Notes: a model not told the origin generated them from the sequence alone. Positions 13,187-60,540 are shown, counted from the first letter of the stretch. The stretch: 64,000 bases of DNA from Gammaproteobacteria bacterium (GCA_029881035.1 JAOUNI010000004.1:7924-71923), one strand, 5' to 3'. Program-made: numbers and translations.

Positions 13187-13253
13187 GGCGTGTCTGGAAT
13201 ATATAAAGTTTAATTAATATAGGATAAAAAATGCAGTCCTGATTGCCTTTTAT

Positions 13254-15781: not shown

Positions 15782-15792
15782 CAGGGCAAAAT

Positions 15793-34219: not shown

Positions 34220-34801
34220 TTAAGCTGTTTTACGCAATTTACGTGACACACCAAAACCGATAAGGCCAACACCTAGCAATAAAGCTAGGCCTGGCTCTGG
34301 AACGGCAGAAGAAGAAAAAGAGAACCTATTTCCAGAGAAGTCCCAATTTCCGTAAGTATCTGCATATCCATCAATAGACATAAAACCATTTCCTTCTAAT
34401 AAAATTGTGCTTGTACCTTTTACCAAGGTAGTAACAGAGTTCATAGTGAAAGAATAAGTTAACCCTGAATAGTTAAATGACCACAATGGTGTTCCTGAAG
34501 CAAGTGGAGAAAACTGAAAATCGAAGAAATCAACACCTGTGTTTTCAGTGCCTGCAAAGCTACCAGTACCCTCTACAACATTTTGATCAAAACCATTATC
34601 ACCAGCGGTAAATGAGATACCAGTAGAGGCTGCTAGAGTAGTGCTATTCCACAGGCTATCAACACTTGTCCAATATGCATTAGTTTCACTACTAAAAGCG
34701 ATCCCCCCAACTATTGGGGTAGTAGGCATAACTATCGCAGAAGCAACGCTTGATATAGCGAATATGCTTGCAGTTAATAATAATTGTCTTAATGTTTTCA
34801 T
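34220..34801 (-). CDS. PEP-CTERM sorting-domain protein
   Basis: Signal peptide is present. C-terminus VPEPGLALLLGVGLIGFGVSRKLRKTA. Confidence 0.85.
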   Translation of the reverse strand: MKTLRQLLLTASIFAISSVASAIVMPTTPIVGGIAFSSETNAYWTSVDSLWNSTTLAASTGISFTAGDNGFDQNVVEGTGSFAGTENTGVDFFDFQFSPLASGTPLWSFNYSGLTYSFTMNSVTTLVKGTSTILLEGNGFMSIDGYADTYGNWDFSGNRFSFSSSAVPEPGLALLLGVGLIGFGVSRKLRKTA

Positions 34802-36813: not shown

Positions 36814-37685
36814 GTAAAAAAGAGAAAGAGAGTGAACCAGCAACAATAGCGAGTCTAATGGCATCAAGAGCTGTTACTAATAGTGGTGATAGTGACTTTT
36901 TTTTACCTAAGAATGTGTCACATGGAAATTTAAAATCAGCATCGAAAGCACCATTGAGTGTTGCTGTAGAGAGTCGTTTGAGGGACGCGAATATGCTGGT
37001 TTCGGGAAGTCAGCTGGGAGAGCGTTTTTCAGATGAATATCGTAGAATTAAGCGTCCATTACTGGCAAATGCATTTGGTAAAACGGCTTCGCTAGTTGAG
37101 CAGGGAAACCTTATTTTGGTCACCAGCTCGATTCCTGGTGAAGGAAAAACGCATACTGCCGCCAATCTTGCCCTGTCAATGGCGCAGGAGAAAGATCATA
37201 CGGTGTTGTTGGTTGATTGTGATGTCAATAAACATGGCATTACTCGACTATTTGGCCTTACTGATAAGCCAGGTCTGGTTGATGTGCTTGAAAGTGATAG
37301 TTTATCTATAGGTGATGTAATGTTACGTACGGATATTCCGGAGTTAAGCATAATCAGCGCGGGTAAAGGTAATGAATATGTAACTGAAATGCTGGCTAGT
37401 CAGAAAATGTTTGATTTTGTGTCTGAACTTGCTTCTCGGTATGATGACCGCGTCATTATTTTTGACGGACCACCGCTTTTACCAACGCCACAAACTCAGG
37501 TTTTAGCAGGTTTGGTAGGGCAAATAGTTTTTGTTATTGAGGCGGGAAAAACCCCTCAAATGCTGGTTAGGGAGGCGTTGGAAATGATCCCCAGAGAAAA
37601 AGCCACCAACCTGGTGGTGAACAAAAGTGAGGGCATGTCTGATCGCGGTGGTTATTATTATGGTTACTACGGCTCAGAGAGCTAA
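36810..37685 (+). CDS. epsG: Exopolysaccharide-associated BY-kinase (tyrosine autokinase, EpsG type)
   Basis: Walker A GEGKT, Walker A' and Walker B (VLLVDCD, IIFDGPP), and a C-terminal Tyr-rich tail (GGYYYGYYGSES). Confidence 0.8.
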   Translation: MSKKEKESEPATIASLMASRAVTNSGDSDFFLPKNVSHGNLKSASKAPLSVAVESRLRDANMLVSGSQLGERFSDEYRRIKRPLLANAFGKTASLVEQGNLILVTSSIPGEGKTHTAANLALSMAQEKDHTVLLVDCDVNKHGITRLFGLTDKPGLVDVLESDSLSIGDVMLRTDIPELSIISAGKGNEYVTEMLASQKMFDFVSELASRYDDRVIIFDGPPLLPTPQTQVLAGLVGQIVFVIEAGKTPQMLVREALEMIPREKATNLVVNKSEGMSDRGGYYYGYYGSES

Positions 37686-37711: not shown

Positions 37712-38572
37712 ATGGTAATTCAGAATGCTTTGACCGTCGATGTTGAAGACTATTTTCACGTTTCTGCTTTTGCAAAAAGTATTAATCAGCAGGATTGGGA
37801 TAAATATCCTCTGCGAGTAGGAAATAATACACGCCGATTGCTGGATCTGTTTGACGAATACGAGGTAAAAGCTACCTTTTTTGTATTGGGCTGGGTCGCG
37901 GAACGCGCGCGTGATCTTGTTAAGGAGATCGCCAATAGAGGGCACGAGGTTGCTTGCCACGGTTACAGTCATCAGTTGGTCTACAATCAGAGCCCGGAAG
38001 TATTTCGCGAAGAAACATTTCGTTCAAAACATCTGCTCGAAGATATAGCTCAAACGCCGATACGTGGTTACCGTGCGGCGAGTTATTCAATTACCAGTCG
38101 TTCGCTTTGGGCATTGGATATTCTTGCTGAAGCCGGCTTTGACTACGATTCCAGTATTTTTCCAGTTAGACATGATCGATATGGTATTCCAGATGCACCA
38201 GAGTTTCCTTATCGCATGAAAACGCAAGATGGTCATTTGCTGGTAGAATTTCCACTCTCGACTGCAAAGTTGTTCCAGTACCGATTGCCTGTAGCAGGTG
38301 GCGGTTATTTTCGACTTTATCCTTATGCGATAACAAAGGCAGGTTTGTCGCAAATTAATCGAAGGCAGCAACCCTTTATATTTTATTTGCACCCCTGGGA
38401 GATTGATCCTGATCAGCCAAGAATATCAGCAAAATGGTTTTCCCGTTTTCGGCATTATAATAATCTTGGTAAATGCGAAGCGCGGTTACATCATCTTTTG
38501 TCAGATTTTAAATTTGGAACAAGTGAAAGTGTTTTAACATCACTTGGGCTGATAAATCGTATCGAACAATAA
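37712..38572 (+). CDS. XrtA-locus polysaccharide deacetylase (NodB homology domain)
   Basis: TVDVEDYFH ... HGYSH ... PWE motifs of the carbohydrate esterase family 4 / PEP-CTERM deacetylase subfamily. Confidence 0.85.
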   Translation: MVIQNALTVDVEDYFHVSAFAKSINQQDWDKYPLRVGNNTRRLLDLFDEYEVKATFFVLGWVAERARDLVKEIANRGHEVACHGYSHQLVYNQSPEVFREETFRSKHLLEDIAQTPIRGYRAASYSITSRSLWALDILAEAGFDYDSSIFPVRHDRYGIPDAPEFPYRMKTQDGHLLVEFPLSTAKLFQYRLPVAGGGYFRLYPYAITKAGLSQINRRQQPFIFYLHPWEIDPDQPRISAKWFSRFRHYNNLGKCEARLHHLLSDFKFGTSESVLTSLGLINRIEQ

Positions 38573-38592
38573 AGCCTAAACAGGAGAACCCT

Positions 38593-39723
38593 TTGCCCGA
38601 TTACCGTGCTGAATCCTGTACAATAAAAAACATAAGCGATTTAAAACAGGAATGGATCAATCTTCAGGAACGTGCGGATTGTTCTTACTTTCAGTCATGG
38701 GGCTGGGTAGGTACGTGGCTAGAGCACGTAGTAGATGATTTTGAGCCTACATTAATAAAAATATGGCACAACGACTTACTTGTGGGCATGGGCGTATTTG
38801 TGACCAAACAAGTGACACGCCGCGGCGTCATCCATTCTAACACCATGTTTCTCAATGAATATCCTTTTGATGGTCGAAATATGGCTATTGAATACAATGG
38901 TTTGTTGGTTGATAAAATGCACAGGCAAGCTGTTTACCAGCAGGCCATAGAGCATTTGCTTAGTACAAAGTACGATGTTGATGAGTTCTTTTTTAGTGGT
39001 TTATGTGAAGGCGAGGACGTAAAACTACTTAAGGATAGTCATGTTGATGACAAAATCTCTTTAAATGTTTTGGAGATATCATCCGCATGGTCAGTAGATC
39101 TGGACACTTTTGAGCCAGAGATCAGTGCCTTTCTGGAGACATTAAGTAAAAACAGAAGAGCTCAGATCCGGCGTTCAATGCAGCTTTATGAAAACCAGGG
39201 TGGCTTGCAGATTAATGAAGCACAAACAATGGATGATGCTTTGGTCTGGTTCGATGAATTAAAAAAGTTACATACAAATCACTGGGTGAACAAAGGTCAG
39301 CCGGGCTCATTTGCGAATCCGAGGTGGGAAGCCTTTCATAGGGCTTTGATACAAAATCGTTTTCATACTGGCGAAATACAGTTGTTGAAAGCGAGTAATG
39401 AAACGTTGGCAATTGGGTATCTGTATAATTTTGTCTGGCGAAAACGTGTCTATGTGTTACAGACGGGGTTTAGTGATTCATTAGACAAAAAATTAATGCC
39501 AGGCTATGTGACGCACGTGCTAGCTATTGTGTATAACAAAGTAAAAGGCATGTCTGTGTATGATTTGATGCACGGAGATTCGCTTTATAAAAGGTTGTTG
39601 TGTAACCAGAGCCACACACTTATCTGGATGGTATTACAAAGGCGGCAGCTAAGATTTGAGGTAGAAAAAGTGGCTGTTGATGTGATAAGAGGCTTCAGAA
39701 AAATGATCCGTTTCGGGCATTGA
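38593..39723 (+). CDS. FemAB-family (GNAT fold) protein, PEP-CTERM-system-associated
   Basis: 376 aa. The sequence resembles the FemAB-related family found in XrtA loci and is colinear with the C-terminal ~340 aa of ORF 45071..46504. Confidence 0.7.
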   Translation: MPDYRAESCTIKNISDLKQEWINLQERADCSYFQSWGWVGTWLEHVVDDFEPTLIKIWHNDLLVGMGVFVTKQVTRRGVIHSNTMFLNEYPFDGRNMAIEYNGLLVDKMHRQAVYQQAIEHLLSTKYDVDEFFFSGLCEGEDVKLLKDSHVDDKISLNVLEISSAWSVDLDTFEPEISAFLETLSKNRRAQIRRSMQLYENQGGLQINEAQTMDDALVWFDELKKLHTNHWVNKGQPGSFANPRWEAFHRALIQNRFHTGEIQLLKASNETLAIGYLYNFVWRKRVYVLQTGFSDSLDKKLMPGYVTHVLAIVYNKVKGMSVYDLMHGDSLYKRLLCNQSHTLIWMVLQRRQLRFEVEKVAVDVIRGFRKMIRFGH

Positions 39724-39953
39724 TAGTAGCGGAAAACATAATGTAAATGGGCATACTTTGGATGTGCCCAGTGAATATGAGTTGTATTTGCAGCACCAAT
39801 AATGAGCCAATATTTTACCTGTCATGATATTTAACAGTTTCAGTGCATGTGCGATGTGTTTTATAACCTTATGTTTTTACGAGAAATAATCTATGCATAT
39901 ATATAGATCAGCTTGTTTGAGTATGATCAACTGAAATTTAGGCTCAATTAGGC

Positions 39954-39970
39954 GTCACAAACTTTTACAG
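39954..39970 (-). promoter_or_regulatory. Candidate motif copy E (minus-strand TGTAAAAGTTTGTGACG)
   Basis: 13/17 match. Its orientation relative to the downstream gene is the same as for copies A and C. It is 65-81 bp upstream of the -24 element at 40035. Confidence 0.35.
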
Positions 39971-40034
39971 CAAGGACCGTGTCAACATTAGCAGCAAAAC
40001 TGTAACATATTGATTAATAGCGGATAATGCTAAA

Positions 40035-40049
40035 TGGCATGTAATTTGC
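40035..40049 (+). promoter_or_regulatory. Sigma-54 promoter for the PEP-CTERM-like gene 40110..40730
   Basis: TGGCATG-TAAT-TTGC with exact spacing, ~60 nt upstream of the ATG. AAGGAG RBS at 40098-40103. Confidence 0.55.
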
Positions 40050-40109
40050 TTGTTATATGGTAATCCCAGTATATGGGCTAATTTCGGAAATAAATGAAGG
40101 AGAAAGAAA

Positions 40110-40730
40110 ATGATAAAAAAATTAATCGGGGCTACGGTCCTGGGATTGATGGCGTTAGGAACCTCAATGACAGCAAATGCGATAGCAGTAACAGATGTTC
40201 AGGATTATTCGAACAATGTTGCGGGTGAATATTTCGTAGATGTTGATGCTAATAAATACAACAGCCCATATTATCGTTGGTTTAATCAAGACTGGGGCTG
40301 GACTCATAATGCCATCGCTGGAACATTTACATCGATATCGCTTGATATTTCAGCATTTGATGTAGATTGGCCTTCTGAGCTAGACATGATTTCAGTCTGG
40401 GATGGCGCCACATGGGCGACCCTAGGTGATTTATCTGGCGGAAGCGATATTTGGTCTTTCACTAGTTTTGATTTAAGTGGATTTGCATGGGCTGAAGCTC
40501 AAGTTAATGCTGGTCTTCAGGTTAGAGTAGATATTGATTCTGGAAATACCTCCGGTTTTAACAATTGGGCGCTCACACTTGCTAAAGCCACATTATCCGT
40601 TGATGGCGGAAGTCAGACTTGTGTTCCTCAACCAGGTGTACCTTGTGTTTCTGCTGCAGAACCTGCAAGTCTTGCTTTAATTGGTTTAGGTTTGGTTGGT
40701 TTTGGTGTAGCACGTCGACGTAAAGCCTAG
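40110..40730 (+). CDS. PEP-CTERM-type sorting-domain protein with a variant AEP motif
   Basis: Signal peptide is present. The C-terminus SAAEPASLALIGLGLVGFGVARRRKA has the Gly-rich TM helix and Arg-rich tail of the PEP-CTERM signal, but with A-E-P in place of P-E-P. Confidence 0.75.
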   Translation: MIKKLIGATVLGLMALGTSMTANAIAVTDVQDYSNNVAGEYFVDVDANKYNSPYYRWFNQDWGWTHNAIAGTFTSISLDISAFDVDWPSELDMISVWDGATWATLGDLSGGSDIWSFTSFDLSGFAWAEAQVNAGLQVRVDIDSGNTSGFNNWALTLAKATLSVDGGSQTCVPQPGVPCVSAAEPASLALIGLGLVGFGVARRRKA

Positions 40731-40761
40731 TAATAGTTAGTATTTGCACTATCTAGTCGAA

Positions 40762-40790
40762 AAAGCCCCTCTTTTGAGGGGCTTTTTTTA
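40762..40790. terminator. Bidirectional rho-independent terminator
   Basis: AAAAA-GCCCCTC-tttt-GAGGGGC-TTTTTTT, between convergent genes. Confidence 0.7.
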
Positions 40791-40966
40791 TCTAATAAGA
40801 CTTCTGATTCGTTACTCTTAAATAGCCCGTGGCAAAAAGGGATGTATTCCCATCATTCGCCACGCTACCCAGAGAGCTGCAAGTTAACTCAAGAACGAGT
40901 TATTCATCCTGGCTAGCGTAGATGCTGCATTAGGTTCCCGACTTGAGAGTGGGAATATACTAATCA

Positions 40967-43765
40967 CTATAGCTGTATCAGTAATTTATTGGCCTCTTCT
41001 CTGCCTTGAAAAGGCACATTGTTCTCAAGAATTTTTTCCAGTATTTGCTTCGCTTTGTTTTTCTGGCCGGTTTCGACAAGCGCAACTGCAAAGTGATAGT
41101 TAACTTCGCGATTAGAAGATAACTTTGATGCTGCGGATTCCAGTACTACCAGAGCCGACTCTGCACGGCCAGCTTTTACCAGCAACCAGCCATAGGTATC
41201 CTGTATAGCCGGGTTATCAGGTGCAAGCTTATTGGCCTTGACCGCCATATCTAATGCTTCTGGTTTGCCTTTTAGGTAATACAGCCAGGCCAGATCATTG
41301 AGCACGACAGGATGGTCTGGCTGTTTTTTCAGTATTCTTTCGTATTCGGTCATGGCTTCATCTTGCAGGCCGTCTGCCAGTTGTGAGGACGCTAGGACAA
41401 AACGGGTCGAATGGTCATTAGGATTTTTCTCCAGCCAGTTGTGAAGAGCACTGTAGCCAGCGGCAGGCTGTTTTAGCGCCCTGTGCGCCCTGTTGATACG
41501 AACTACGATCTCGCTATTGTCAGAATCCTGCTCCGATGCCAAGAGATAAGCCGTAATCGCTTTGCTGGCATTATTTTGCGACATCAGTACATCGCCTTCG
41601 AGCAGATAGCCCGCGGCCTTTCCTGCTTGCGTTGTTTTTAGTTTTCGCACGATCAACATGGCTGCATCAAGATCACCGGTGGCTAGTTCTAGATTCCCCA
41701 AGGCCTGTCTAGCTTTGAGATGGTCAGGTTCCAGCTCGAGCGTTTTGTGAAGTGATTTTCGGGCGCCTGTAGCATCGCGGACTTTGGCTCTGACAAGAGC
41801 AAGGTAATAATGAGCATCAGGCAACGAAGGTGCAACATCAATAAGTTTTTTGATCGTTGCTTCGGCATCTGGGCTGCTAGAAGCGAACTGTGCTTTGATG
41901 AGTGCTATCAAGCCTCTGGGTAATTTTGGCGAGATTTTTTCGACTTCTTTTGCATAAGTCAGGGCTTCTTTTATTTTACCGATCCTAAGATAGTAATCTG
42001 ATAATGCTAGACGTGGATAGATCGCAGAAGCATCCGATTTTCTCGCTTTTTCTAGTAGCTCAATGGCCTCATTAACTTTACCTTCTTTATCCAGCAGGTA
42101 AGCTAGGGAGGTCAGCGCATCGGCTTGGTCAGGTTGCAATTTCAATACCTTCTCGTAGTGCTGGCGAGCTGAGACAGTATCGCCATCAACAACATCAAGA
42201 CTAGCGAGAGACAGTATTGATAATATGAAGTCAGGTTTGATATCCAGGGCATTTCGGAAACTGTTTCTTGCAGCACTGCGATTATTTTTACCTTTATAGG
42301 CCAGGCCTTCCATATGTGGTGGTAAAGGGCTGTCTGGTACTTGTACGGCAAGTTGTTTTGCCATTTCAATTGCTTTGTCAAATTCCGATGCGCGCAGATG
42401 AATCATAATAAGGTCAGTCGCCGCTTGGCCAGACTTGTCGCCCTTTTTTAGCGCGAGCTCAAGTAATTCGATGGCCTTGTCGGACTCGCCCATTGTTACA
42501 TAAGCCTTGACGAGCTCACTGCGAATACCGGCATTATCTGGGGAAGTATTAGCCGCATCTTTAAGATTTTTCAGTCCTGATACTTCGTCGCCACCTTTAA
42601 TCTTCGCTATGCCAAGCAATGTAAGCAATTCTGAGCTGTCATCTGTTCTGGATGCAGCAAACTCAAATCGTTCTTGCGCTTCATTATACTGTCCCATTGA
42701 CAGATAAATTTTACCCAGTGCCTGTTGAGCATCGAGGTTTCCGGGCCTGGCGGCAGTCGCCTTTTCCAGATAGTAGGCGGCCTGATTGTTGTTTTGCAGT
42801 AGGTAGTACAGGTTTGCTGATAATAGAAGGCCCCCATAGTGATTGGGTTCTTCTTTGAAGACTTTCAATAAATAATCTTTCGCAACATCATATTCTCCTT
42901 GTTTGAAAGCTATTATGCTCCTGTAATAATTAAGTTCTGGATCGAAACTAAAATGAATAAGTGCAGGGTTAAGTGCTTCCAAAGCTTTCTCTGTTTGATT
43001 TTGCATTAGGCGCACTTTACTTTGGCCCAGTCGTGCCAAACGTTCCCATCCGCTGACAATTTTTGGTGGATCGAGATCAATCACTTTCTGAAAGCAGTCG
43101 TCAGTGGTTGCAAAGTCCTTTTTGGTCAATGAGCGTTCGGCTTTCAATAGCCACAGATCCTGATTATCGGGATATAGCTCAATTGCATGATCGAGAATAT
43201 TATCGGCAGATTCTTCTTTGTCATGTTTTAGCTGTAGCCTGGTTCGGCTCTGCAACACCCACAGCGCATCTTTGTCGAAAGTTTCAGCTGTGATAGTGGT
43301 GCCCTCGGAGTCTTTCCATTTGCCTAGCGCCTGTTCTGCAGATGACCACAGCCCCAGTAGATTGGCCTTAACGCCGTTTGGGTAGTTGTCCTTGATAGGG
43401 ATATCATCAAGAACAGACCTGAATTCGCCTTGCCTGAATAATACTTCTGCAAGCATTAACTGGGTAGCCGCCTCGTCCCAGCCTGCTTCCAGCGCACGGC
43501 GGAAATTCTTTTCAGCGCCAGCAGCATCACCCATTTCAAGACTAATCTTGCCCAGAAGGAAGCGGGCCTCCGCATTCTGTGCATTTTTTACGAGCACATT
43601 TTTAAGTTCTATGCCGGCAGCATTCAGGTCACGTGACTGGTAATACTCCATGGCCTTGTCGATACCTTCCTGTTCACTCATGCCACCACAGGCAGCCAGA
43701 TGAGCTACAAACCAGGCAAGTAGCATATTTCTAGTAAGAATTGTGACTGTGTTTATAATTGACAT
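40967..43765 (-). CDS. Second PrsT-like TPR-repeat lipoprotein (paralog). The probable start is 43765; the ORF track's TTG start is at 43813.
   Basis: ~930 aa of TPR repeats. Lipobox LAACG follows the internal Met. GGAG lies 8 nt upstream of the ATG at 43763-43765. Confidence 0.75.
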   Translation of the reverse strand: MSIINTVTILTRNMLLAWFVAHLAACGGMSEQEGIDKAMEYYQSRDLNAAGIELKNVLVKNAQNAEARFLLGKISLEMGDAAGAEKNFRRALEAGWDEAATQLMLAEVLFRQGEFRSVLDDIPIKDNYPNGVKANLLGLWSSAEQALGKWKDSEGTTITAETFDKDALWVLQSRTRLQLKHDKEESADNILDHAIELYPDNQDLWLLKAERSLTKKDFATTDDCFQKVIDLDPPKIVSGWERLARLGQSKVRLMQNQTEKALEALNPALIHFSFDPELNYYRSIIAFKQGEYDVAKDYLLKVFKEEPNHYGGLLLSANLYYLLQNNNQAAYYLEKATAARPGNLDAQQALGKIYLSMGQYNEAQERFEFAASRTDDSSELLTLLGIAKIKGGDEVSGLKNLKDAANTSPDNAGIRSELVKAYVTMGESDKAIELLELALKKGDKSGQAATDLIMIHLRASEFDKAIEMAKQLAVQVPDSPLPPHMEGLAYKGKNNRSAARNSFRNALDIKPDFILSILSLASLDVVDGDTVSARQHYEKVLKLQPDQADALTSLAYLLDKEGKVNEAIELLEKARKSDASAIYPRLALSDYYLRIGKIKEALTYAKEVEKISPKLPRGLIALIKAQFASSSPDAEATIKKLIDVAPSLPDAHYYLALVRAKVRDATGARKSLHKTLELEPDHLKARQALGNLELATGDLDAAMLIVRKLKTTQAGKAAGYLLEGDVLMSQNNASKAITAYLLASEQDSDNSEIVVRINRAHRALKQPAAGYSALHNWLEKNPNDHSTRFVLASSQLADGLQDEAMTEYERILKKQPDHPVVLNDLAWLYYLKGKPEALDMAVKANKLAPDNPAIQDTYGWLLVKAGRAESALVVLESAASKLSSNREVNYHFAVALVETGQKNKAKQILEKILENNVPFQGREEANKLLIQL

Positions 43766-44005
43766 ATTTAACTCCATAAAAAATGCGTCTTGAATCATTT
43801 CTAAAAAATTCAATGTTAAAAAGTGGTGCTGATTTATCTAACGATTATTTGTAAGGGAACCCTGTATAGTCTTTAAAATGCCATCTCCCAAAGATATCCT
43901 AATCGATTAGATGAACTCCTATAACCCTGCAACATACCATAACTTATAGCAGCAGGCCCTATTTTATCGTGAGTTTAACTACCTAATGTTCAGTGCGCAC
44001 TTGTC

Positions 44006-45037
44006 TTAAATCTGACTGTGACTAAATAAATAATTGTGATTGGCTCGTTCAATCCAACTGCAATACTGAATAAAGTCAGTCATATTATCAGGTAGTTCAA
44101 AACGTGGTAGACAGTAAAGCAATGCTGCAGAATTATTATCTACAGAACCGGGGAGTGTAGCTACCGCGCCAATAAAGCTTTCTTTTTTAAGAATATTTAT
44201 TTCCCTTGGACCAAAATCCAGAACCCTGCCAGTAGGATAACAAAATACCTTAAGTGGGTTTGATAGTTCGCTTTCTAGAATCTTCCATGAGCCGATGATT
44301 TCTTCTTCTGCTGATTTTTTGTTTAGCTTTGAGAGGATGCGATGCGTCATTGAATGTGGCGCGAACCTGATTCCCTTGCTTTCAAGTTCACGCGCCATTT
44401 CCCAATTCAAAGATTTATAAGGGTTGGGTGCGGTTATAGGAAGTTGGACGTCAGCGGCATCAGCAAGGTTATTTATTATCTCTGGAATAGATTCTGAGTT
44501 CATTTCTTTAATGACATTTCGGATTTCTTCTCGAGCATTACGGCGGTTATTTTTATTTCCGAGTATCATGTTTAGTATTTCATCTTCAAACTTTAAAACA
44601 ACATGATTTTTATTTGTATTGTCGATAATCCATGATACTTGAGCATCCCAGGGCCATAGAATCTGATCAAGTAGACCTGTAATGATAAAAAAAGTTAAAG
44701 GACAGTTAAATTCAAGGAAGATAGGTGCGGCTATCTCTGCTTGTTCTAAAAAACCATCATCCATGGTGAATGACACCGATTTTTTTGGTAGAGTTATCTG
44801 ATTGTTTAGTGATCCGATAATGTCTTCAAGCGATACAAATGTGTAGTCTTTATCTTTTAAATATCTCAGGCAGCGACGAAGGTGATCTGGTGAAATGCCA
44901 CTATTAGACTGGCCTTCCACTTTTATGCGGTGGATCATAAATATAGGAATACCGTGACCGAGAAATGAAGTTGCAATCGCAGAAACAGGAGCGCTTGCTA
45001 ATAGGGGAACGAATAGTTTTTTTAGAAGTTTTTTCAT
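44006..45037 (-). CDS. Polysaccharide deacetylase family protein (NodB domain)
   Basis: Signal peptide is present, with the FTMDDG catalytic motif 1 and H-containing motifs downstream. Confidence 0.7.
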   Translation of the reverse strand: MKKLLKKLFVPLLASAPVSAIATSFLGHGIPIFMIHRIKVEGQSNSGISPDHLRRCLRYLKDKDYTFVSLEDIIGSLNNQITLPKKSVSFTMDDGFLEQAEIAAPIFLEFNCPLTFFIITGLLDQILWPWDAQVSWIIDNTNKNHVVLKFEDEILNMILGNKNNRRNAREEIRNVIKEMNSESIPEIINNLADAADVQLPITAPNPYKSLNWEMARELESKGIRFAPHSMTHRILSKLNKKSAEEEIIGSWKILESELSNPLKVFCYPTGRVLDFGPREINILKKESFIGAVATLPGSVDNNSAALLYCLPRFELPDNMTDFIQYCSWIERANHNYLFSHSQI

Positions 45038-45070
45038 CGGCTTATTTGAGTGTGTATAGTTGGGTTACAT

Positions 45071-46504
45071 TCAAGGAATATTTTTTACTATGAATGGCCC
45101 TAACCATTGAGCAAGTTTTACAGGTAATCTTTTCCATATATTAACAATGAGCGCATATTTAGGGTTTGATGGATTGAGCGATGGGAGTTGGTTTGTATTG
45201 CCAAGCCAATAGTGCCAATATAGTTGCTTTGGTTGAGCGCCCCATTGTCTTTTAAATAGATAAGTGCCTGTATTTTTACTTGAGCGGCCAAAATCAAAAT
45301 GATTGTAGCCTTGGTTAACGGTAAATTTCAAAACTTCCCAGTATAGTAGCATATTCATACTGTGCTGATTATAGTCGCGAATAGTAGATGCGAGCGGGAT
45401 TTCCATTCCGTTGCCATGACAAAGTAACAAGCCAGCTGATACAGGTTTGTTGTTGAGGCGTATAACTATAATGTGGCTGTTATCTGGAAAACTAGTAAGA
45501 ATATTTTCAATGAGTTGTTTGCTGTGTGCAGGAGAACCAAGGTCGCGCATATTACGGGAATAAACTTTGTAAAAGTCATCCAGGTATTTTTTTCCGCCAA
45601 TAAGTACTTTCGGTGTTAGTTGTTGCGGCCGTTTTATCTGCGCACGTAGTTTTGCAGTGAAGCTGGCCCAGAGCGCCTCTTCAGAATTGGGTAACGCTAG
45701 GATCATATTAACTTTGTGAGATTGTACTGGGAGGCCATCCCGTGGAATATCGTCGCGGTACTCGGTATGATCGATACCTAGACGAGCCGCTTCTTCATTG
45801 GCGGCTTTCATAAGCTTATGTTCAATCAGCGGGTGGTCTGCAATGGCACCGCCACGTTGAAAGAAAGGCATAGAAACTAATATGTCACCAAATAGTCGGC
45901 TCTTGAGTCGAACCATTGGCAGAACACCCACGATTTCCTTATTTTTGTCACAGGCGAATAAATAATGACTGTCAATGGAGTACGTTTTGCGAAGTATATC
46001 TCGCCAATGAGTTAGGTGATGAATGCTGGCTGCGGGCTGTTTTGAAACGTAATCATTCCACGCGTTTTCTTCATTATCAAGCAGGCAGATGGTGATCGTG
46101 TCTAGATCAACTTCAGAAATAGTATGCCTGCTGCTTGATGATGTTATCACTGGTTTCGTTATAGACTGGTCTTTGTTATTACCAATAATAAAAAAATCTA
46201 GAATTTGATTTTCAATAATCCCTATTTTTACTTCCAGTTGCTTACGCTCAGAACTTTGCTGTTTCATGGCGTGCATCAGTTCATTTGTTGGGAGGTTGAT
46301 TTTTTTGGCCTCACCAATTTTCCGAGATATGATTTTCGTTTGAATTTGTATCTCTAGAGTTTGTTTTTTTAATAACTGCAGCTGATTCCATAGTTCGCCG
46401 AGTTTTAATCTTTCATCTGATCCAGTATCTGGATATTGTGAAGAAAATAATGCAACAGGGTTTAATAAAATCTGGTTCTTTAGTTTGGCCTGATTTTGAC
46501 TCAT
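45071..46504 (-). CDS. FemAB-family protein with an N-terminal coiled-coil extension resembling the seryl-tRNA synthetase tRNA-binding arm
   Basis: The C-terminal ~340 aa are colinear with the FemAB-related ORF 38593..39723. In the N-terminal ~130 aa, KLGELWNQLQLLKKQTLEIQIQTKIISRKIGEAK lines up residue-for-residue (same 34-aa spacing) with E. coli SerRS [34 protein letters not shown]. Confidence 0.7.
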   Translation of the reverse strand: MSQNQAKLKNQILLNPVALFSSQYPDTGSDERLKLGELWNQLQLLKKQTLEIQIQTKIISRKIGEAKKINLPTNELMHAMKQQSSERKQLEVKIGIIENQILDFFIIGNNKDQSITKPVITSSSSRHTISEVDLDTITICLLDNEENAWNDYVSKQPAASIHHLTHWRDILRKTYSIDSHYLFACDKNKEIVGVLPMVRLKSRLFGDILVSMPFFQRGGAIADHPLIEHKLMKAANEEAARLGIDHTEYRDDIPRDGLPVQSHKVNMILALPNSEEALWASFTAKLRAQIKRPQQLTPKVLIGGKKYLDDFYKVYSRNMRDLGSPAHSKQLIENILTSFPDNSHIIVIRLNNKPVSAGLLLCHGNGMEIPLASTIRDYNQHSMNMLLYWEVLKFTVNQGYNHFDFGRSSKNTGTYLFKRQWGAQPKQLYWHYWLGNTNQLPSLNPSNPKYALIVNIWKRLPVKLAQWLGPFIVKNIP

Positions 46505-46512
46505 GCGTTAAC

Positions 46513-47550
46513 CTACATCCATCCTGAAATACGTGCGAGAAAAGATATTCTGTCATTAGCGATGTCTTCATGAATTCCAATACGGCGCAATAGGTTGGTA
46601 TTAGTTGTTATAGAATTCCAACCGGTTTCAGTTGAAACGCTACCTTCATACTGTTGTTGTACTAGCTCTAATGCTTTGGAAGAGTAATCTCCATTTGGGA
46701 AGCAAAAAGTTTTTACAGAAAATCCTGTTTTATTTTCAATATGTTGTTTGCTGGCGATAATTTCATATTCAAGCACATTGTTATTAGTCTCATTATTGAG
46801 ACGGATATGGTTGCAGGTGTGGCTGCCAGCTTCAACCAGCCCGGAATCATTCATTTCAGAGAGTTGTTGCCAATTAAGCAATGAAGGCTCGTTATTGTAT
46901 TTATGTAATTTTAATGCGTCTTCGATTTTATCAAGGCGCATGTGAATCTCGTGGTCGGGTAATGTTTTTGTGTTGGCAATTAGTTCGCTAAGCTCTTCCT
47001 GAGTCGGTGCTACAGTAGTGAACTGATAGCTTACAGAAGGGCTTTTTATCCATTCTAGTGATGGGTGCGACCAGTGGCCTGGATGATCTATTGCGATGGA
47101 TGTAATTATAAGTGCAAGGCGTTCTGGCCAGAAACGTTTGTTGGTGTCGATCATGTCAGAGACCAGAAAGATCGTAGCGGGCACCTCAAGCTCGCGTAAT
47201 ATCGGAAAAGCAAATTCATAGTTGTCTGCCCAGCCATCGTCGAAGGTAATTGCACAAGCAAGGGAGGGAAGTTTGTCGCCGTTGTTTTTTTTAGTTATCC
47301 AGTCAGAGAGCTTAACAATTTCAAAATATTCTTTAAGTATATTGAGATGTAATCTGAAAGACTCAGGTGAAACAATCATGCCTGGTTCTTCAGAAAGTGC
47401 ACGCTGGTCGTCGATGGGCAGAATCCGATGATACATCAGTATTAGAAATTGAGGTTCATCAGTCGTTCTTGTGTGTCTGCCAAACGAGGCTGCAAGGTGC
47501 TGCAGAGTGCGCTTGATGATGTATTTAACAGGGTTGGAACGGAGTGTCAT
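46513..47550 (-). CDS. Polysaccharide deacetylase family protein (NodB domain)
   Basis: ITFDDGW motif 1, followed by typical downstream His motifs. Confidence 0.7.
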
Positions 47551-47628
47551 ATTGATTAGCTGTTATGGGCTGGTTTGCGACTGTCATCTATTGTAATGTG
47601 TTCGCCTTCAGAACGAAAATATGAATTA

Positions 47629-48732
47629 ATGAAAACTATTCTGCATACCATTGATACTACCGGCCCTGGTGGGGCTGAAACTGTATTTATAGATCTCGCA
47701 AGCAATTTGCCTCAGGAGAAATACCGAGCTGTGATTGTAATTCGTGGCAAAGGCTGGGTCTATGATGAGCTCTGTCGGCGTGGCATGCGCCCCATCCTTC
47801 TGGATGCTAAAGGGTCATTCAACTGGCGATATTTGAAGGCATTAGTCTCCCTAGTTCGCCGTGAAAAAATTGATTTGATTCAGTCGCACTTGCTGGGTTC
47901 GAATGTTTATTGTGCACTGGCGGGTCTAATTACCCGAAAACCCGTCGTGGCCACTTTTCATGGTGCCGTGGATATAGGTAGTAAAGAGAGGCTGATGTGG
48001 TTGAAGTTTGGCGCTATCAATATGGGAGCCAGTTCAATTGTGGCGGTTTCAGATAGTCTTAGAGAGAATATTATTAAGCGAACGCCACTACGGAACAGTA
48101 AAACAAGTGTGATATACAACGGTATCAATACTGCTGATTTCATGCGCCCAACTTCAGATGCTCTACGCAAGCAAATGGGCTGGAATAAAAAAGATATTAT
48201 CATTGGTAGCCTGGGTAATATTCGTCCAGCCAAGGCTTATGATGTTTTATTACGATCTGCAGCATTGCTGAAAGATCATATGCTCAACTTCCGTTTTGTT
48301 ATCGCTGGCCAGGGCAAAGGACGTTTGTTTGAGGATTTACTCAAACTGAAAGACGATCTGTGTCTTGGTGATAGAGTTCTTTTCCTCGGCTTCAATGATG
48401 ATCCAGCCGATTTTTTGTCTAATCTTGATTTGTTCCTGTTATCTTCTACTTCCGAAGGATTTTCCATCGCAACCATACAGGCGATGGCGGCTGGATTGCC
48501 CGTGGTAGCGACCCGCAGTGGAGGACCACAGGAAATTATCACGCATGAAAAGAATGGATGGCTGGTTGACCCAGATAATCCACAGCTAATCGCTGAGGCA
48601 TTGGACAGGCTGACGGCAGATCAGGAGCTAAGTGAATGCCTGGCAAAAGCGGGGCAAAAGCACGCATTTAGTGCTTTTGATGTGAAAAATATGGTTGGTG
48701 CTTATGAAGCGATCTATGAAGCATATACGTAG
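47629..48732 (+). CDS. Glycosyltransferase family 4. The start is probably the ATG at 47629; the ORF track gives 47575.
   Basis: The N-terminal GPGGAE and C-terminal E-x7-E region (SSTSEGFSIATIQAMAAGLPVVAT) are typical of GT4. Confidence 0.8.
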   Translation: MKTILHTIDTTGPGGAETVFIDLASNLPQEKYRAVIVIRGKGWVYDELCRRGMRPILLDAKGSFNWRYLKALVSLVRREKIDLIQSHLLGSNVYCALAGLITRKPVVATFHGAVDIGSKERLMWLKFGAINMGASSIVAVSDSLRENIIKRTPLRNSKTSVIYNGINTADFMRPTSDALRKQMGWNKKDIIIGSLGNIRPAKAYDVLLRSAALLKDHMLNFRFVIAGQGKGRLFEDLLKLKDDLCLGDRVLFLGFNDDPADFLSNLDLFLLSSTSEGFSIATIQAMAAGLPVVATRSGGPQEIITHEKNGWLVDPDNPQLIAEALDRLTADQELSECLAKAGQKHAFSAFDVKNMVGAYEAIYEAYT

Positions 48733-48769
48733 ATATGTAATCCATCGGCAATAACTACTTTTTTAGTCG

Positions 48770-49942
48770 TCACTTTTTTAGGTCTTTTAGATATTGTTTC
48801 AGTTCCCACCAGAAAGGCCCTAGATCACCCAAACGATTGACTTCATGCCTTGTTTTAAATGGCCTTGGTAATAGAAAATGTAGTACCGCCCGAGACTTAT
48901 CCATAAAAGAAAATTCTTTATCTCGAAGCGTCAGGTATAAACAATCCAAATCGCCCAAAATCCATCGTAGGCGCTTGCCTCTTTTATAAGATTTGAGAGG
49001 TGTTATTTTTTCACCGCAGGATATCTGATATAACAACCAGGGAAAATCGACGCCAGCATCAATAGCCAGCTGTAATGACCCCCAGAAACGTGTATTGATC
49101 TCCATTAGGTAAGGAGTACCAACGTTCGATACTTTAAACTCCACCATAGCTATACCATGCCAGCCAACATGACCAAGCAAGGCCTGAGTATAAGATAGTA
49201 ACTTTGAATTCACCGCGGTACTTTCAGAAAGGACACTGACACCCCCTCTGGGTGGTTTCTCTCGTAAACGTTTATGAGCGAAAAACGCCAAAGGCTTTCC
49301 TTTATCGTAAAGTGCGAATATACCTTCACCCTTGCCCGGAACACATTCTTGCAGCATAAATGGATGTGAACGAAATGCAGGATCGTTTTTAAGTATATCA
49401 GTAGCTGCATCAACAGTGCCTGCAAAACTGACAGTGGTATGCAACCATTCTCCCTGATATTCAAGCCAAGATTTGCCGGGTTTGAGAACCAGAGGATAAT
49501 TTAGCATGTGTAGCTCAACAGGCAGATTTTCAGGAGAGGCCGCATACCAGGTATTGGGTATGGGTATGTCGAGAGAGTCTGCCAGGTGCATAAGAGCATA
49601 CTTATTAGCAAGTGCATCAACGGTATTGATATCTGGAAAAGGTAGAGTAACGCCGGGTAATGCGTGCTGATGGTTAAGTAACAAGTTAGTTGTTAGCTCG
49701 GTCATCGGGAAAACGATATTAATATTTTCCTTTTTGCATAATTCGGCAATAGCAAAAATAAATTGTTCAGGGTGTAGGCGTGGTGAAGGGTATGAAAAAT
49801 ATTGCTTCGAGTAGCGCGAACAGCCCGACAGAGTTGTCTGTGAATCATCAGCAGTTATTATCGAAACACCACGACTACCTAGTGAGCGCGTTACCGCCAA
49901 AGCGGAGCGCTGGTTAGCATCTAGAATAAGTACGGTTTTCAT
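48770..49942 (-). CDS. ATP-grasp domain enzyme (carboxylate-amine ligase type)
   Basis: Pre-ATP-grasp N-terminus. Central LVLKPGKSW ... LQECVPG ... and the catalytic loop EINTRFWGS (E-x-N) are typical of the ATP-grasp fold. Confidence 0.7.
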   Translation of the reverse strand: MKTVLILDANQRSALAVTRSLGSRGVSIITADDSQTTLSGCSRYSKQYFSYPSPRLHPEQFIFAIAELCKKENINIVFPMTELTTNLLLNHQHALPGVTLPFPDINTVDALANKYALMHLADSLDIPIPNTWYAASPENLPVELHMLNYPLVLKPGKSWLEYQGEWLHTTVSFAGTVDAATDILKNDPAFRSHPFMLQECVPGKGEGIFALYDKGKPLAFFAHKRLREKPPRGGVSVLSESTAVNSKLLSYTQALLGHVGWHGIAMVEFKVSNVGTPYLMEINTRFWGSLQLAIDAGVDFPWLLYQISCGEKITPLKSYKRGKRLRWILGDLDCLYLTLRDKEFSFMDKSRAVLHFLLPRPFKTRHEVNRLGDLGPFWWELKQYLKDLKK

Positions 49943-50042: not shown

Positions 50043-50609
50043 GTGAATAAAAATCGATGGCTAGCCAATCATTACGGATCACGCCGAGGCTTTGTGTTCA
50101 CCTTCTGGTATCGGTTTCTTTATCTATTAGGTAACTATCACGCTTATCGTCAGGTTGAATGGCGCTCAATTGAAAGGCTGGTGTTCATTTGTAAAGGAAA
50201 TATCTGTAGAAGCGCTTATGCCGAAGCGGTAGCTCGTTCATTGGGTATTAATGCAATATCCTGTGGACTTGATACTATCGAGGACGCACCTGCAAATGAG
50301 GCTGCGATTAGTGCGGGAAAGCAACTGGGCGTTAATCTTGAAAGCCATTCGACAAGTCCAATAATGTACCAGGTACTTAAGAAAACAGACTTGTTAATTG
50401 CCATGGAACCTTGGCAAGTTGAGTTTTTGGAAAAGAATTTGTCTAGAAAGCATTCATGTACATTATTAGGACTGTGGTCACAACCAGTATTACCGCACAT
50501 TCAAGATCCATATGGGTCATCCCCGGAATATTTTGAGAAATGTTTCATATACATACAAAACTCAGTTAATGAACTTGCCAGGAAGATAAATGAAAAATCA
50601 GGCAATTGA
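50043..50609 (+). CDS. Low-molecular-weight protein-tyrosine phosphatase
   Basis: P-loop ICKGNICRS (CX4CR(S/T)) and the DPY general-acid motif (IQDPYGS). Confidence 0.8.
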   Translation: MNKNRWLANHYGSRRGFVFTFWYRFLYLLGNYHAYRQVEWRSIERLVFICKGNICRSAYAEAVARSLGINAISCGLDTIEDAPANEAAISAGKQLGVNLESHSTSPIMYQVLKKTDLLIAMEPWQVEFLEKNLSRKHSCTLLGLWSQPVLPHIQDPYGSSPEYFEKCFIYIQNSVNELARKINEKSGN

Positions 50610-51918
50610 ATTGGCGGATTTATACGCATTTAAACTGGGATGTCTGTGGCGTGCGCTTAAAGCAGAGCACCTTTCTTTGTGGATGTTGTGTATATACTTT
50701 TTCCTCGAATATGTGCGCCCGCAAGATTTATACCCTGTGCTAGACATATTGCCATGGACGCAGGTTTTTTTAATTGCCACGATAGTGACTGCATTTTTTG
50801 ATCATTCTGTGCGTTGGGTGAGTAATGCAGAGAATAAACTTCTCATACTGTTTTTGATAATTGCAACTTTATCGGGTATTTTTGCGTTTATGCCAGGTCG
50901 ATCGCTTAAATATTGGGATGTTCTTGGTGGATGGGCAATTGCATATTTTCTTGTTATCAATATTGTAAATACTGAAAAAAGACTGATATTGTTTTTATTG
51001 GCTTACAGTCTGTTTAATTTTAATATGGCGCAACATGGATCGCTAACATGGATTATGCGTGGATTTTCTTTTGCTGATTTTGGGCTGTTAGGATCTCCCG
51101 GCTATTTTAGGAACTCAGGTGAATATGCTGTTCAAATGCTAATTTTTGGATCATTGGCAATCTCTATTGTTGTTTCATTAAAAGGTTATTGGGGGCAGTA
51201 TAAAAAATGGTTTTTTTATTTATGTGCGGCTACTGGTTATATGGCAGTGATGGGTGCTAGTTCTCGTGGTTCACAAATCGGCCTGGCAGTAATAAGCGTA
51301 TGGTTTTTACTTAAACAGGAGGGCGGGTTTAAAGGCTTGTTTGTTTTGCTTGTTGCGGTGGCTTTTTTGTATTATTTATTGCCTGACAAGCAGTTGTTAC
51401 GTTTTCAGGAAATAGGAGAGGATGAAAATTCATTGCAGCGTTTAACATACTACATCCATGGGATAAATGAAGTTATACCTAAACACCCCATTTTAGGGGT
51501 TGGATATCAGAACTGGCTACCGTATCTAAATTTTACTGTTCCAGAAGGGATGGGGCCAATGCAAAAAAATCAGGATCCTCATAATATTTATATTCAGGCA
51601 GCTGCAGAACTAGGGTTATTTGGTTTTTTAGTTTTTATTCTGCTAATAGTCTTTGCATTCAAAAATAATGCGCAAACAAGGCTGTTAGCAAAAAAAATAG
51701 ATAATAATTTTTATTTTAATCTCAGTTATGGCTTAGATGCTGGGTTAATCGGCTATCTGATAGCAGGAAGTTTTGTCACAATATTATATTACCCCTTTTT
51801 CTGGGTGCAAATATCAATGATTGTTATGCTTAATAATGTAATGAAAAGGGTATATATTTCCAACGATAGTACTATGTACAAAAAAAGGCTAGAAACAGGT
51901 GTGAAAAGGAACTTTTAA
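50590..51918 (+). CDS. O-antigen ligase-like (Wzy_C) membrane protein. Putative polysaccharide polymerase/ligase of the exosortase locus.
   Basis: Ten or more TM helices with a large periplasmic loop, matching a Wzy_C-type architecture. Its start overlaps the upstream gene by 20 nt. Confidence 0.65.
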   Translation: MKNQAIELADLYAFKLGCLWRALKAEHLSLWMLCIYFFLEYVRPQDLYPVLDILPWTQVFLIATIVTAFFDHSVRWVSNAENKLLILFLIIATLSGIFAFMPGRSLKYWDVLGGWAIAYFLVINIVNTEKRLILFLLAYSLFNFNMAQHGSLTWIMRGFSFADFGLLGSPGYFRNSGEYAVQMLIFGSLAISIVVSLKGYWGQYKKWFFYLCAATGYMAVMGASSRGSQIGLAVISVWFLLKQEGGFKGLFVLLVAVAFLYYLLPDKQLLRFQEIGEDENSLQRLTYYIHGINEVIPKHPILGVGYQNWLPYLNFTVPEGMGPMQKNQDPHNIYIQAAAELGLFGFLVFILLIVFAFKNNAQTRLLAKKIDNNFYFNLSYGLDAGLIGYLIAGSFVTILYYPFFWVQISMIVMLNNVMKRVYISNDSTMYKKRLETGVKRNF

Positions 51919-54806: not shown

Positions 54807-54827
54807 TTTGCTCTTTATTCCACCAAA

Positions 54828-56117: not shown

Positions 56118-56270
56118 ATAGTTAACTCTTGAGTGGCATCACCAAAGTGTGAATATTTAAGACTAGGGCTTTGACTGAATTATACGTACTGATTATATAT
56201 CCAATTTTGAAATTGCGCATGTATAAATAAAAAACATATTGAGCATCGTGTAACTAGTTGAAATTACATA

Positions 56271-57374: not shown

Positions 57375-57585
57375 AGAAACAGGTGCCTGTTTGGTTACTT
57401 GGATAGTGAGGTCAAATCACTGTATTATTATAGATCTTTATATAAGTTTATTGGCAAGTAATGGTATGTCACTCATATCTTTATAGTTAATTGAGCTGCA
57501 ATGTGTTATAAATCGCAGTAGTTATACTACTGTATCAACTTAACTTGTATCGGTAGTTAGTATCTGTGATGAATTAAGAAGTCGT

Positions 57586-58341: not shown

Positions 58342-58489
58342 TTTGATGCTGCGTTTAAACCTAGTGTTGAATTTGTACTTTCATATGCGCTTAATAAAAA
58401 TAAAATCTTCTGTTTTTGACACCTAGCAATCGCAATTGAGAGACAGTATTAAATAGCATGAAAACAGTTAAGCGAATTGAAAAGCGAGG

Positions 58490-59113: not shown

Positions 59114-59328
59114 CTTAGAATATATATTATCTGCCATGTAGATGACTATGCTTGCGGACTGATTAAACAATTTAATCAATAATCTACGTATTTGACGTAT
59201 GATGGTGTTGCATCTAAAAAACTTAAAAGTCATGGTGAGTAGGCATGTTATGGATGAATTTTAACGAATATATGGGATTTGTAGTATATGCATTACGTTC
59301 TAGTGTTATTTCAATAAAGCAATAAACT

Positions 59329-60480: not shown

Positions 60481-60540
60481 CAACACACGTAAGATATTTA
60501 GATGTATCTATAAGAGGAATTTTTATGACGGCGGATAATA

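Follow-up and report, generated by a model that had tools for sequence, protein, structure and literature searches.

A recurrent variant of the XrtA/PEP-CTERM exopolysaccharide locus with a seryl-tRNA synthetase-type arm on its FemAB protein and a predicted cytoplasmic amino-sugar editing module

XrtA/PEP-CTERM exopolysaccharide (EPS) loci of the Rubrivivax, Thauera, Rhodoferax and Zoogloea type carry a TIGR03006 deacetylase gene followed by a TIGR03019 FemAB gene, in a gene order that has been documented (PMC3684757). In the literature searched, the function of TIGR03006 and TIGR03019 proteins was covered by gene lists only. Here we analysed positions 37712–49942 of a 64,000-nucleotide stretch of DNA (the window) from an uncultured gammaproteobacterium, and found that they are part of an XrtA/PEP-CTERM EPS locus. 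The window has in common with the canonical XrtA locus the exosortase, PrsK/PrsR/PrsT, the chain-length determinant, the tyrosine kinase, the priming transferase, the amidotransferase, the TIGR03006 deacetylase (here D1) and the core of the TIGR03019 protein (here F2). Unlike in the canonical locus, however, D1 and F2 lie apart and on opposite strands, with a tandem-GNAT protein (G1) in the canonical place of F2; F2 has gained an N-terminal arm of the seryl-tRNA synthetase (SerRS) type and is flanked by two PgaB-like CE4 deacetylases (D2 and D3); and a block of genes for a GT4 glycosyltransferase, an ATP-grasp enzyme, a low-molecular-weight phosphotyrosine phosphatase (LMW-PTP) and a Wzy_C protein is attached. 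Most likely, the stretch represents a recurrent XrtA locus variant that carries a cytoplasmic 'amino-sugar editing' module, and we consider it moderately probable that the module uses tRNA as the amino-acid source to aminoacylate a sugar of this EPS from which the N-acetyl group has been removed.

The evidence that carries this proposal begins with F2 (45071–46504, minus strand), which is a member of the TIGR03019 and FemABX family by sequence, fold and catalytic dyad. Its core, a FemAB/FemX-fold pair of aminoacyl-transferase domains formed by residues 137–477 (45071–46096, minus strand), matched TIGR03019 with 345 bits (cut-off 260) and PF02388 with 37.5 bits (cut-off 24), and the TIGR03019 model covered residues 148–477 only. 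The AlphaFold2 (AF2) model of F2 (mean pLDDT 89) contained a double-GNAT core after a linker. A Foldseek comparison of the model with the PDB showed that the best 26 matches were all aminoacyl-tRNA-dependent transferases. The closest fold was FemX of W. viridescens (E 7.5e-17; TM 0.73, normalised to the target), and the other top folds included Sba18/Sbb17 (solved with streptothrisamine), FemX and FemA of S. aureus, and MprF; sequence identity to these FemX-type matches was only 10–15%. The F2 family profile also matched FemX of W. viridescens directly (E 1.8e-7), with F416-K417 aligned on F304-K305 of FemX, and both F416 and K417 were invariant in 45 aligned F2 sequences. Lys305 is the catalytic residue of FemX (PMC12945691). 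F2 therefore resembles FemX, FemABX and MurM in its double-GNAT fold, in a Phe-Lys dyad placed on Lys305 and in a presumed aminoacyl-tRNA donor, whereas it differs from them in its low sequence identity, its Gram-negative host and its EPS context. It differs also at Tyr254 of FemX (mutated in entry 1xf8), which is not conserved in the F2 family; this difference would fit a different acceptor.

N-terminal to this core, residues 1–105 of F2 (46190–46504, minus strand) form a predicted helical hairpin that is homologous, at the level of the family and as judged from profile comparisons, to the tRNA-binding arm of SerRS. AF2 placed helices at residues 28–67 and 73–104 (40 and 32 residues, pLDDT ~90), followed by a disordered linker (residues 106–123); the arm-less F2 orthologues of canonical loci are 342–368 residues long. 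The N-terminal extension was conserved across the 45 aligned homologues, with S59, I62 and G63 invariant. When a profile of 23 arms was searched against all PDB sequences, the top six matches were SerRS chains (E 3.8e-7 to 1.2e-5), and the alignment covered SerRS residues ~22–98, the tRNA-binding arm, including the motif S-K/R-x-I-G-x-A-K; the best non-SerRS match was a coiled coil (E 4.5e-3). Similarly, PF02403 (Seryl_tRNA_N) was matched by all 23 of the 23 arm sequences (best 1.5e-10), other families being matched by at most three each, and 79 of the best 120 F2 homologues carry a precomputed PF02403 match. The F2 hairpin has the same length as the SerRS arm (PF02403) and shares its motif, whereas it is fused to a transferase instead of a synthetase core. 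This homology lends indirect support to an aminoacyl-tRNA as the putative donor of F2. No description of a SerRS-type arm on F2 was found in the literature. In two further loci (L020 and L027, from Candidatus Tenderia and a related metagenome-assembled genome), the frame upstream of F2 is open for ~600 codons and encodes an unrelated signal-peptide-like stretch where the SerRS-type arm would lie; either a fusion of another kind or simply an open frame may account for this.

The arm might also be read as a generic coiled coil for tRNA or protein interaction. F2 would then still depend on tRNA, and either the amino acid would be one other than serine or the acceptor would be something other than the EPS, for instance a lipid as with MprF, a peptidoglycan precursor or a PEP-CTERM protein. 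The F2 fold search did match MprF and aminoacyl-PG synthases, and weak coiled-coil matches to unrelated proteins appeared below the SerRS matches of the arm. In S. aureus FemA, moreover, the coiled-coil arm is an insertion within a domain and resembles the SerRS arm, yet FemA uses Gly-tRNA, and a SerRS-like arm is therefore no proof of serine. The F2 arm, by comparison, is N-terminal and homologous to SerRS in sequence. Its SerRS matches were ~1000-fold better than those to other coiled coils and extended over the whole arm with the conserved S-x-x-I-G-x-A-K, and F2 sat among sugar deacetylases, GT4 and Wzy_C in every locus examined. Taken together, these data make the generic-arm explanation rather unlikely.

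The partner of D1, G1 (38593–39723, plus strand), is a tandem-GNAT protein of FemX-type fold, annotated 'CelD/BcsL-like', that matched PF13480 (75.9 bits) only and gave no match to TIGR03019, PF02388 or any NCBIfam model. In a fold search with its AF2 model (pLDDT 90), the top six matches were FemX of W. viridescens (E 5.8e-14; TM 0.64 and 0.70), and FemA and Sba18/Sbb17 followed. Its 22 secondary-structure elements matched the order of the F2 core one-to-one, and the invariant residues Y332-K333 lay in the helix equivalent to that of F416-K417, an equivalence of element order only. A search for G1 homologues returned 473, and the best 120 of these were at least 48% identical. A sequence-level link of G1 to FemX or F2 was sought with hhalign, a PDB profile search and an unfiltered hmmsearch on a FemX fragment; none of these returned one, and fold and topology alone connect G1 to either protein.

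These results bear on the possibility that F2, G1 or both are acyl-CoA-dependent GNAT N-acyltransferases, which would swap acyl groups on de-N-acetylated sugars with no amino acid involved. Pfam covers both proteins with PF13480, 'Acetyltransferase (GNAT) domain', JGI labels G1 homologues 'CelD/BcsL family acetyltransferase', and tandem-GNAT N-acetyltransferases and a glucosamine N-acetyltransferase appeared among the lower-ranked folds. For G1 in particular, the donor could be acyl-CoA because the sequence comparisons gave no link to FemX or F2. However, the best folds of both F2 and G1 were aminoacyl-tRNA-dependent enzymes, F2 carries the SerRS-type arm and a dyad aligned with Lys305, and the Q/R-x-x-G-x-G/A CoA-binding motif of GNAT proteins, read by eye, was not seen after the relevant strand in F2 or G1. 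We therefore regard an acyl-CoA-dependent exchange as improbable.

A reading of this DNA from sequence only had described D1-G1 and D2-F2 as a duplicated deacetylase-FemAB pair. All the genes that it named were found at the coordinates and in the superfamilies it assigned, whereas the comparison of the proteins spoke against duplication. G1 and F2 showed no significant similarity (BLASTP E 0.26; hhalign probability 1%), D1 and D3 shared no BLASTP similarity, and D1 and D2 gave a single 53-residue match (21% identity, E 0.001). D2 and D3 were 26% identical to each other, whereas each was 45–77% identical to its own orthologues in other loci. Because the orthologues are closer than the paralogues, the split between D2 and D3 predates these lineages, and the two are, on these identities, old paralogues. 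A recent duplication of one deacetylase-FemAB pair was thus ruled out by BLASTP, by hhalign and by the orthologue-versus-paralogue identities. Instead, judging from the family assignments, the canonical TIGR03006/TIGR03019 pair is split between the two apparent pairs, and each member has a new partner: D1 (TIGR03006) stands with G1, and F2 (TIGR03019) is flanked by the PgaB-like D2 and D3.

D1 (37712–38572, plus strand) is the canonical XrtA-system CE4 deacetylase with a DUF3473 domain (TIGR03006, 411 bits, cut-off 276; PF01522 and PF11959), and D2 (44006–45037, minus strand; PF01522) and D3 (46513–47550, minus strand; PF01522, 80 bits) belong to another branch of CE4, PgaB/IcaB-like with an insertion in the NodB domain. 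PF01522 was above threshold in all three proteins, and the metal-binding and catalytic motifs (Asp-Asp, in D1 Asp-x-Glu-Asp; His-x3-4-His) were intact, namely DVED and HGYSH in D1, MDD, HSMTH and CYPTG in D2, and TFDD, HTCNH and CFPNG in D3. The intergenic gaps were 20 bp between D1 and G1, 8 bp between D3 and F2, and 33 bp between F2 and D2, and therefore indicate two operons, D1-G1 and D3-F2-D2, the latter beginning with D3 and ending with D2. Sequence matches of D3 in the PDB were PgaB, IcaB and Bacillus deacetylases. Against the PgaB and IcaB models, D2 and D3 scored 88 and 43 bits with TIGR03938 (cut-off 322) and 43 and 29 bits with TIGR03933 (cut-off 248), and NCBIfam holds no model for D2 or D3. 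With scores so far under the cut-offs and no signal peptide on D3, we class them as relatives of PgaB and IcaB and not as members.

The relationship to PgaB and IcaB matters for the compartment in which the deacetylases work. If the CE4 enzymes acted after export, like PgaB, IcaB and PelA, the product would be a partly de-N-acetylated, cationic polymer with free amines, and the FemX-fold and ATP-grasp enzymes would serve an unrelated step. D2 and D3 have their best matches among the PgaB/IcaB N-deacetylases, and the N-terminus of D2 is basic and then hydrophobic, resembling a Sec signal peptide when taken in isolation. No signal peptide was found on D1 or D3, however, in N-termini read from the sequence, and the N-terminus of D2 is conserved among orthologues, has an internal Arg and parallels the non-hydrophobic N-terminus of D3. 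In addition, D3, F2 and D2 form a tight operon with a predicted cytoplasmic, tRNA-using enzyme, and the genes are strictly co-inherited. Action after export consequently appears quite improbable.

Divergent from D3 and separated from it by 24 bp lies the gene for the GT4 glycosyltransferase (47575–48732, plus strand; PF00534, PF13439), with sub-threshold matches to TIGR03088 and sub-threshold similarity to BshA and MshA. The ATP-grasp carboxylate-amine ligase gene follows (48770–49942, minus strand; PF15632, 42 bits, cut-off 29.1), and its product fell below the cut-offs of the other models, PF21360 (24.2 bits, cut-off 27), PRK06849 (88, cut-off 406) and PRK12767. This protein is unusually conserved: the best 120 homologues were 61–77% identical, and E267, E280-x-N282-x-R284 and many more residues were invariant. 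The best solved relative was 2pn1, an unassigned 'CPS large subunit-like' protein (E 8.7e-9). Neither a model of a characterised ligase nor a solved ligase was matched above a generic level, and the attempt to read the substrate from solved relatives returned generic matches only (biotin carboxylase, RimK, VanA and PurT). As judged from these profile searches, NCBIfam has no curated model for the families of G1 and of the ATP-grasp enzyme. In the protein search, the best match of the window's ATP-grasp protein was 77% identical, whereas G1 and F2 were returned at 100%; the missing full-identity match may stem from candidate pre-filtering or from a different gene call in the source record.

The arrangement of these genes was then compared across loci, comprising 34 loci from an F2-seeded genome scan and 80 loci from an ATP-grasp-seeded metagenome scan with identities down to 40%, of which 18 had at least 5 kb on both sides. 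The 34 F2-seeded loci form a series from the canonical layout through an intermediate layout to one like that of the window. The canonical D1-F2(-AsnB) layout was found in L019, L023, L026 and L032, and the intermediate layout, with D1 and F2 adjacent and a block of D3, GT4, ATP-grasp, LMW-PTP and Wzy_C nearby, in L016, L028, L030, L036 and L018. The window-like layout (D1-G1 / D2-F2-D3 / GT4 / ATP-grasp / LMW-PTP / Wzy_C) was found in L001, L006, L007, L012, L024 and L038, and also in L037 with no intact D3 gene; the same order was seen in the neighbourhoods of G1 homologues and of ATP-grasp homologues. Among the 18 ATP-grasp-seeded loci, a D2/D3-type CE4 gene and an LMW-PTP gene were each present in 18, GT4 and Wzy_C each in 17, an F2 match reaching the N-terminal extension in 15, D1 in 10 and G1 in 4. 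GT4 adjoined the ATP-grasp gene in 17 of the 18, and of all the partners of that gene D3 was conserved most widely. When the F2-bearing loci among those seeded with ATP-grasp were examined with the arm profile, 19 of 21 scored as armed. The F2-seeded genome loci with usable flanks divided into 8 with both arm and ATP-grasp gene, 2 with the arm only, 3 with the ATP-grasp gene only and 11 with neither, a co-occurrence with a Fisher p = 0.011 over loci that are not phylogenetically independent.

These results demonstrate that the module is a widespread co-inherited unit and not a one-off; it is conserved, and environmental Gammaproteobacteria and related Pseudomonadota carry it in abundance. A chance mosaic of functionally uncoupled EPS genes had been conceivable from the alternating strands and from the PrsT/PEP-CTERM insert that splits the two halves in the window. 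The gene set and its order, however, persist down to 40–50% protein identity in dozens of loci from different lineages and habitats; synteny effectively refutes such a mosaic, which we find scarcely credible. The earlier description of the set as unusual holds against the textbook XrtA layout and fails for XrtA loci at large, since the same architecture recurs in many of them. The proposal that the AsnB-like amidotransferase is a specific member of the module was also not sustained: only 5 of the 18 ATP-grasp-seeded loci had it at a distance of 10 kb or less from the ATP-grasp gene, and it is better seen as a general XrtA component. Two of the loci deserve separate mention. L018, from the cultured gamma proteobacterium HdN1 (FP929140.1, 661753–683060), shows the module at its most compact: D1 adjoins an armed F2, and directly downstream of the two, in convergent orientation, follow the ATP-grasp gene and D3. 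The F2 orthologue of HdN1 occupies ~671.6–673.1 kb of FP929140.1. In L001 (GCA_016712635.1, JADJQS010000006.1), the F2 orthologue at 12171–13694 appears truncated or frameshifted in an otherwise window-like locus, where the tblastn match ends at query residue 412 and no gene was called in the interval.

We propose a scheme that links these genes through a sugar made within the same locus. The TviB-type UDP-N-acetylglucosamine C-6 dehydrogenase (21431–22720, plus strand; NF011729, 623 bits, cut-off 592; three UDPG_MGDP_dh domains) predicts a 2-acetamido-uronic sugar in the polymer, and would yield UDP-GlcNAcA or an epimer, either of which bears an N-acetyl group as well as a carboxylate. The GT4 enzyme would add an N-acetylated amino or amino-uronic sugar to nucleotide-linked or lipid-linked precursors, from which the CE4 enzymes D1, D3 and probably D2 would strip N-acetyl groups in the cytoplasm to leave a free amine. 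With its SerRS-derived arm, F2 would then bind a class-II tRNA, for which tRNA(Ser) is the simplest candidate, and would aminoacylate the freed amine of the sugar, with Ser-tRNA(Ser) as the most likely donor and seryl as the group transferred; the choice of serine is tentative, and we hold it to be possible rather than probable. G1, paired with D1, may N-acylate a second position. A further amide might come from the ATP-grasp enzyme, which would use the uronate carboxylate or else lengthen the aminoacyl stub, and the AsnB-like enzyme may amidate uronates. The amino-acid decoration pathway suggested by the sequence-only reading is consistent with the present data and is strengthened by the folds, the arm, the TviB-type dehydrogenase and the co-inheritance, while the parts of it that relied on duplication, rarity and the AsnB link have fallen away.

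Several observations weigh against this scheme. The arm of the window's own F2 scored below the Pfam gathering threshold of PF02403 (21.6 vs 28.2 bits; E 2.6e-4), and the Gly-tRNA use of the similarly armed S. aureus FemA means that the arm does not establish serine as the donor. G1 gave no sequence-level match to FemX or F2. The likeness of D2 and D3 to the periplasmic PgaB and IcaB, together with the basic and then hydrophobic N-terminus of D2, sits uneasily with cytoplasmic deacetylation. With regard to co-occurrence, L028, L030 and L036 have an ATP-grasp gene with an arm-less F2, and L002 has a window-like layout with an armed F2 and no ATP-grasp gene within 10 kb. No tRNA genes were found in the window, and the literature search returned no biochemical or genetic data for TIGR03006, TIGR03019, G1 or this ATP-grasp family.

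Each step of the scheme has a precedent. In a reaction catalysed by Orf11, the amino sugar of streptothrisamine receives glycine from Gly-tRNA (PMC12945691). Like the step proposed for F2, the reactions of Orf11, Sbb17 and Sba18 place an amino acid on a free sugar amine, and these proteins are among the best structural matches of F2 and G1; unlike F2, they belong to Streptomyces secondary metabolism, use a glycine donor and a small-molecule acceptor, and have no arm. The MshA-MshB-MshC and BshA-BshB-BshC pathways consist of glycosyltransferase, deacetylase and amine acylation steps. The order suggested here, in which GlcNAc is added, deacetylated in the cytoplasm and its amine then acylated or exposed, would parallel these pathways and that of GpgS-GpgD, in which a glycosyltransferase followed by a deacetylase leads to GlcN-PG (PMC12713373). 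In contrast to the Msh and Bsh pathways, the deacetylases here are CE4 enzymes and not LmbE-type, the ligation chemistry differs, and the product is presumed to be a polymer. ATP-grasp amide ligases that act on glycans or peptidoglycan are also known, for example the E. faecium D-aspartate ligase Aslfm, which acts on peptidoglycan. Another is Cj1438C, the ATP-grasp domain of which amidates glucuronate in the C. jejuni capsule, and which shares with the window's enzyme the ATP-grasp fold, the E-x-N-x-R nucleotide/Mg motif and a polysaccharide locus that makes a uronic sugar (PMC11800379); the window's enzyme is PF15632/PRK06849-like, however, and not TupA-like. No description of the module as a whole was found in the literature.

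The surroundings of the stretch confirm the type of locus. The XrtA/PEP-CTERM EPS locus extends as a single large cluster from ~19.4 kb to the window end, and housekeeping genes occupy 1–13 kb. Models for XrtA, PrsK, PrsR, PrsT, TIGR03007, TIGR03018, TIGR03006, TIGR03019 and TIGR03013 were matched above their own cut-offs, and the signature proteins D1 and F2 are both present and non-adjacent. The locus is assigned to the XrtA type because of a gene for exosortase XrtA fused to EpsI (29722–31263, plus strand; TIGR03109, 238.7 bits, cut-off 208; TIGR02914). The regulators were matched by TIGR02916 with 718 bits (cut-off 300) and by TIGR02915 with 693 bits (cut-off 503), the XrtA-type ATPase-like gene remained sub-threshold (TIGR03015, 294.7 bits, cut-off 324.5), and the TIGR03013 priming transferase stands alongside the TviB-type dehydrogenase. 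Directly upstream of D1-G1 and on the same strand are the XrtA-system chain-length determinant (35281–36813, plus strand; TIGR03007, 497 bits) and the tyrosine autokinase (36810–37685, plus strand; TIGR03018, 243 bits), both above cut-off. PEP-CTERM proteins are encoded at 24943–25686 and 40110–40730 (PF07589 or TIGR02595 matches); a third, PEP-CTERM-like protein (34220–34801) gave sub-threshold subfamily matches only, and a PEP motif, a hydrophobic stretch and a basic tail were read at its C-terminus. The PrsT model TIGR02917 was matched twice, with 625 and 667 bits (cut-off 312), by two full-length paralogues of this TPR lipoprotein (31331–34144, plus strand; 40967–43813, minus strand), both far above the cut-off. 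The second of these (667 bits), together with the PEP-CTERM gene at 40110–40730 (plus strand; PF07589), is inserted between D1-G1 and D2-F2-D3; most related loci are without this insert (40110–43813), which was not found between the modules in L001, L002, L006, L007, L024 and L038.

Downstream of the ATP-grasp gene, the LMW-PTP gene (50043–50609, plus strand; PF01451) is followed by that for the Wzy_C-domain polymerase/ligase-like membrane protein (50590–51918, plus strand; PF04932, with a sub-threshold TIGR03097 match), and the gene for the XrtA-system AsnB-like amidotransferase (62714–64000, plus strand; TIGR03108, 412 bits over 424 of 628 model positions) is truncated by the end of the window. 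The intervening region also holds further glycosyltransferase genes. Within 51954–61296 are an MBOAT protein (DltB/AlgI-like) followed by a 421-aa protein with no Pfam match, an Acyl_transf_3 acyltransferase, a SAM methyltransferase and two sulfotransferases (57586–58341 and 58490–59113), decoration genes that predict an O-acylated, sulfated and methylated polymer. A 429-aa protein that appears to have a signal peptide and matched neither Pfam nor NCBIfam is encoded at 54828–56117 (minus strand), and its homologues (u429) recur beside Wzy_C in L006, L030, L036, L041 and L110. Scans for promoters and terminators across 37–51 kb gave counts at chance level. Just upstream of the EPS locus, 13254–18542 is a compositional island (GC 0.49–0.58 vs ~0.40 elsewhere) with a PotABCD-like ABC transporter (binding protein, two permeases and ATPase) beside an Orn/DAP/Arg-type PLP decarboxylase; these may be horizontally acquired genes for polyamine uptake and synthesis.

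Bacteria of wastewater and sediment rely on XrtA systems to form flocs and biofilms, and the literature searched did not identify the molecule that receives PEP-CTERM proteins from the exosortase. By analogy, a comparison of XrtA with sortase having been drawn before (PMC1569441), the SerRS-armed F2, the CE4 deacetylases and the ATP-grasp ligase would build a short stem of one or more amino acids, begun with serine from Ser-tRNA(Ser), on an amino-uronic sugar while the EPS repeat is still lipid-linked. The free amine of the stem would be the nucleophile that accepts cleaved PEP-CTERM proteins from XrtA. In Gram-negative bacteria, such a stem would correspond to the Fem-built cross-bridge that is the sortase acceptor. 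We give this extension of the scheme a small chance; if true, it would account for the presence of a FemAB homologue and a deacetylase among the signature genes of XrtA loci.

For the proposed scheme itself, the SerRS-derived arm turns a vague FemAB annotation into a specific hypothesis, Ser-tRNA(Ser)-dependent N-serylation of a de-N-acetylated sugar, and the strictly co-inherited CE4/GT4/ATP-grasp block defines its minimal gene set. Since HdN1 is in culture and has the ATP-grasp gene and D3 beside an armed F2, the hypothesis is directly testable. If true, it would provide the first case of a bacterial exopolysaccharide that is aminoacylated in a tRNA-dependent reaction.

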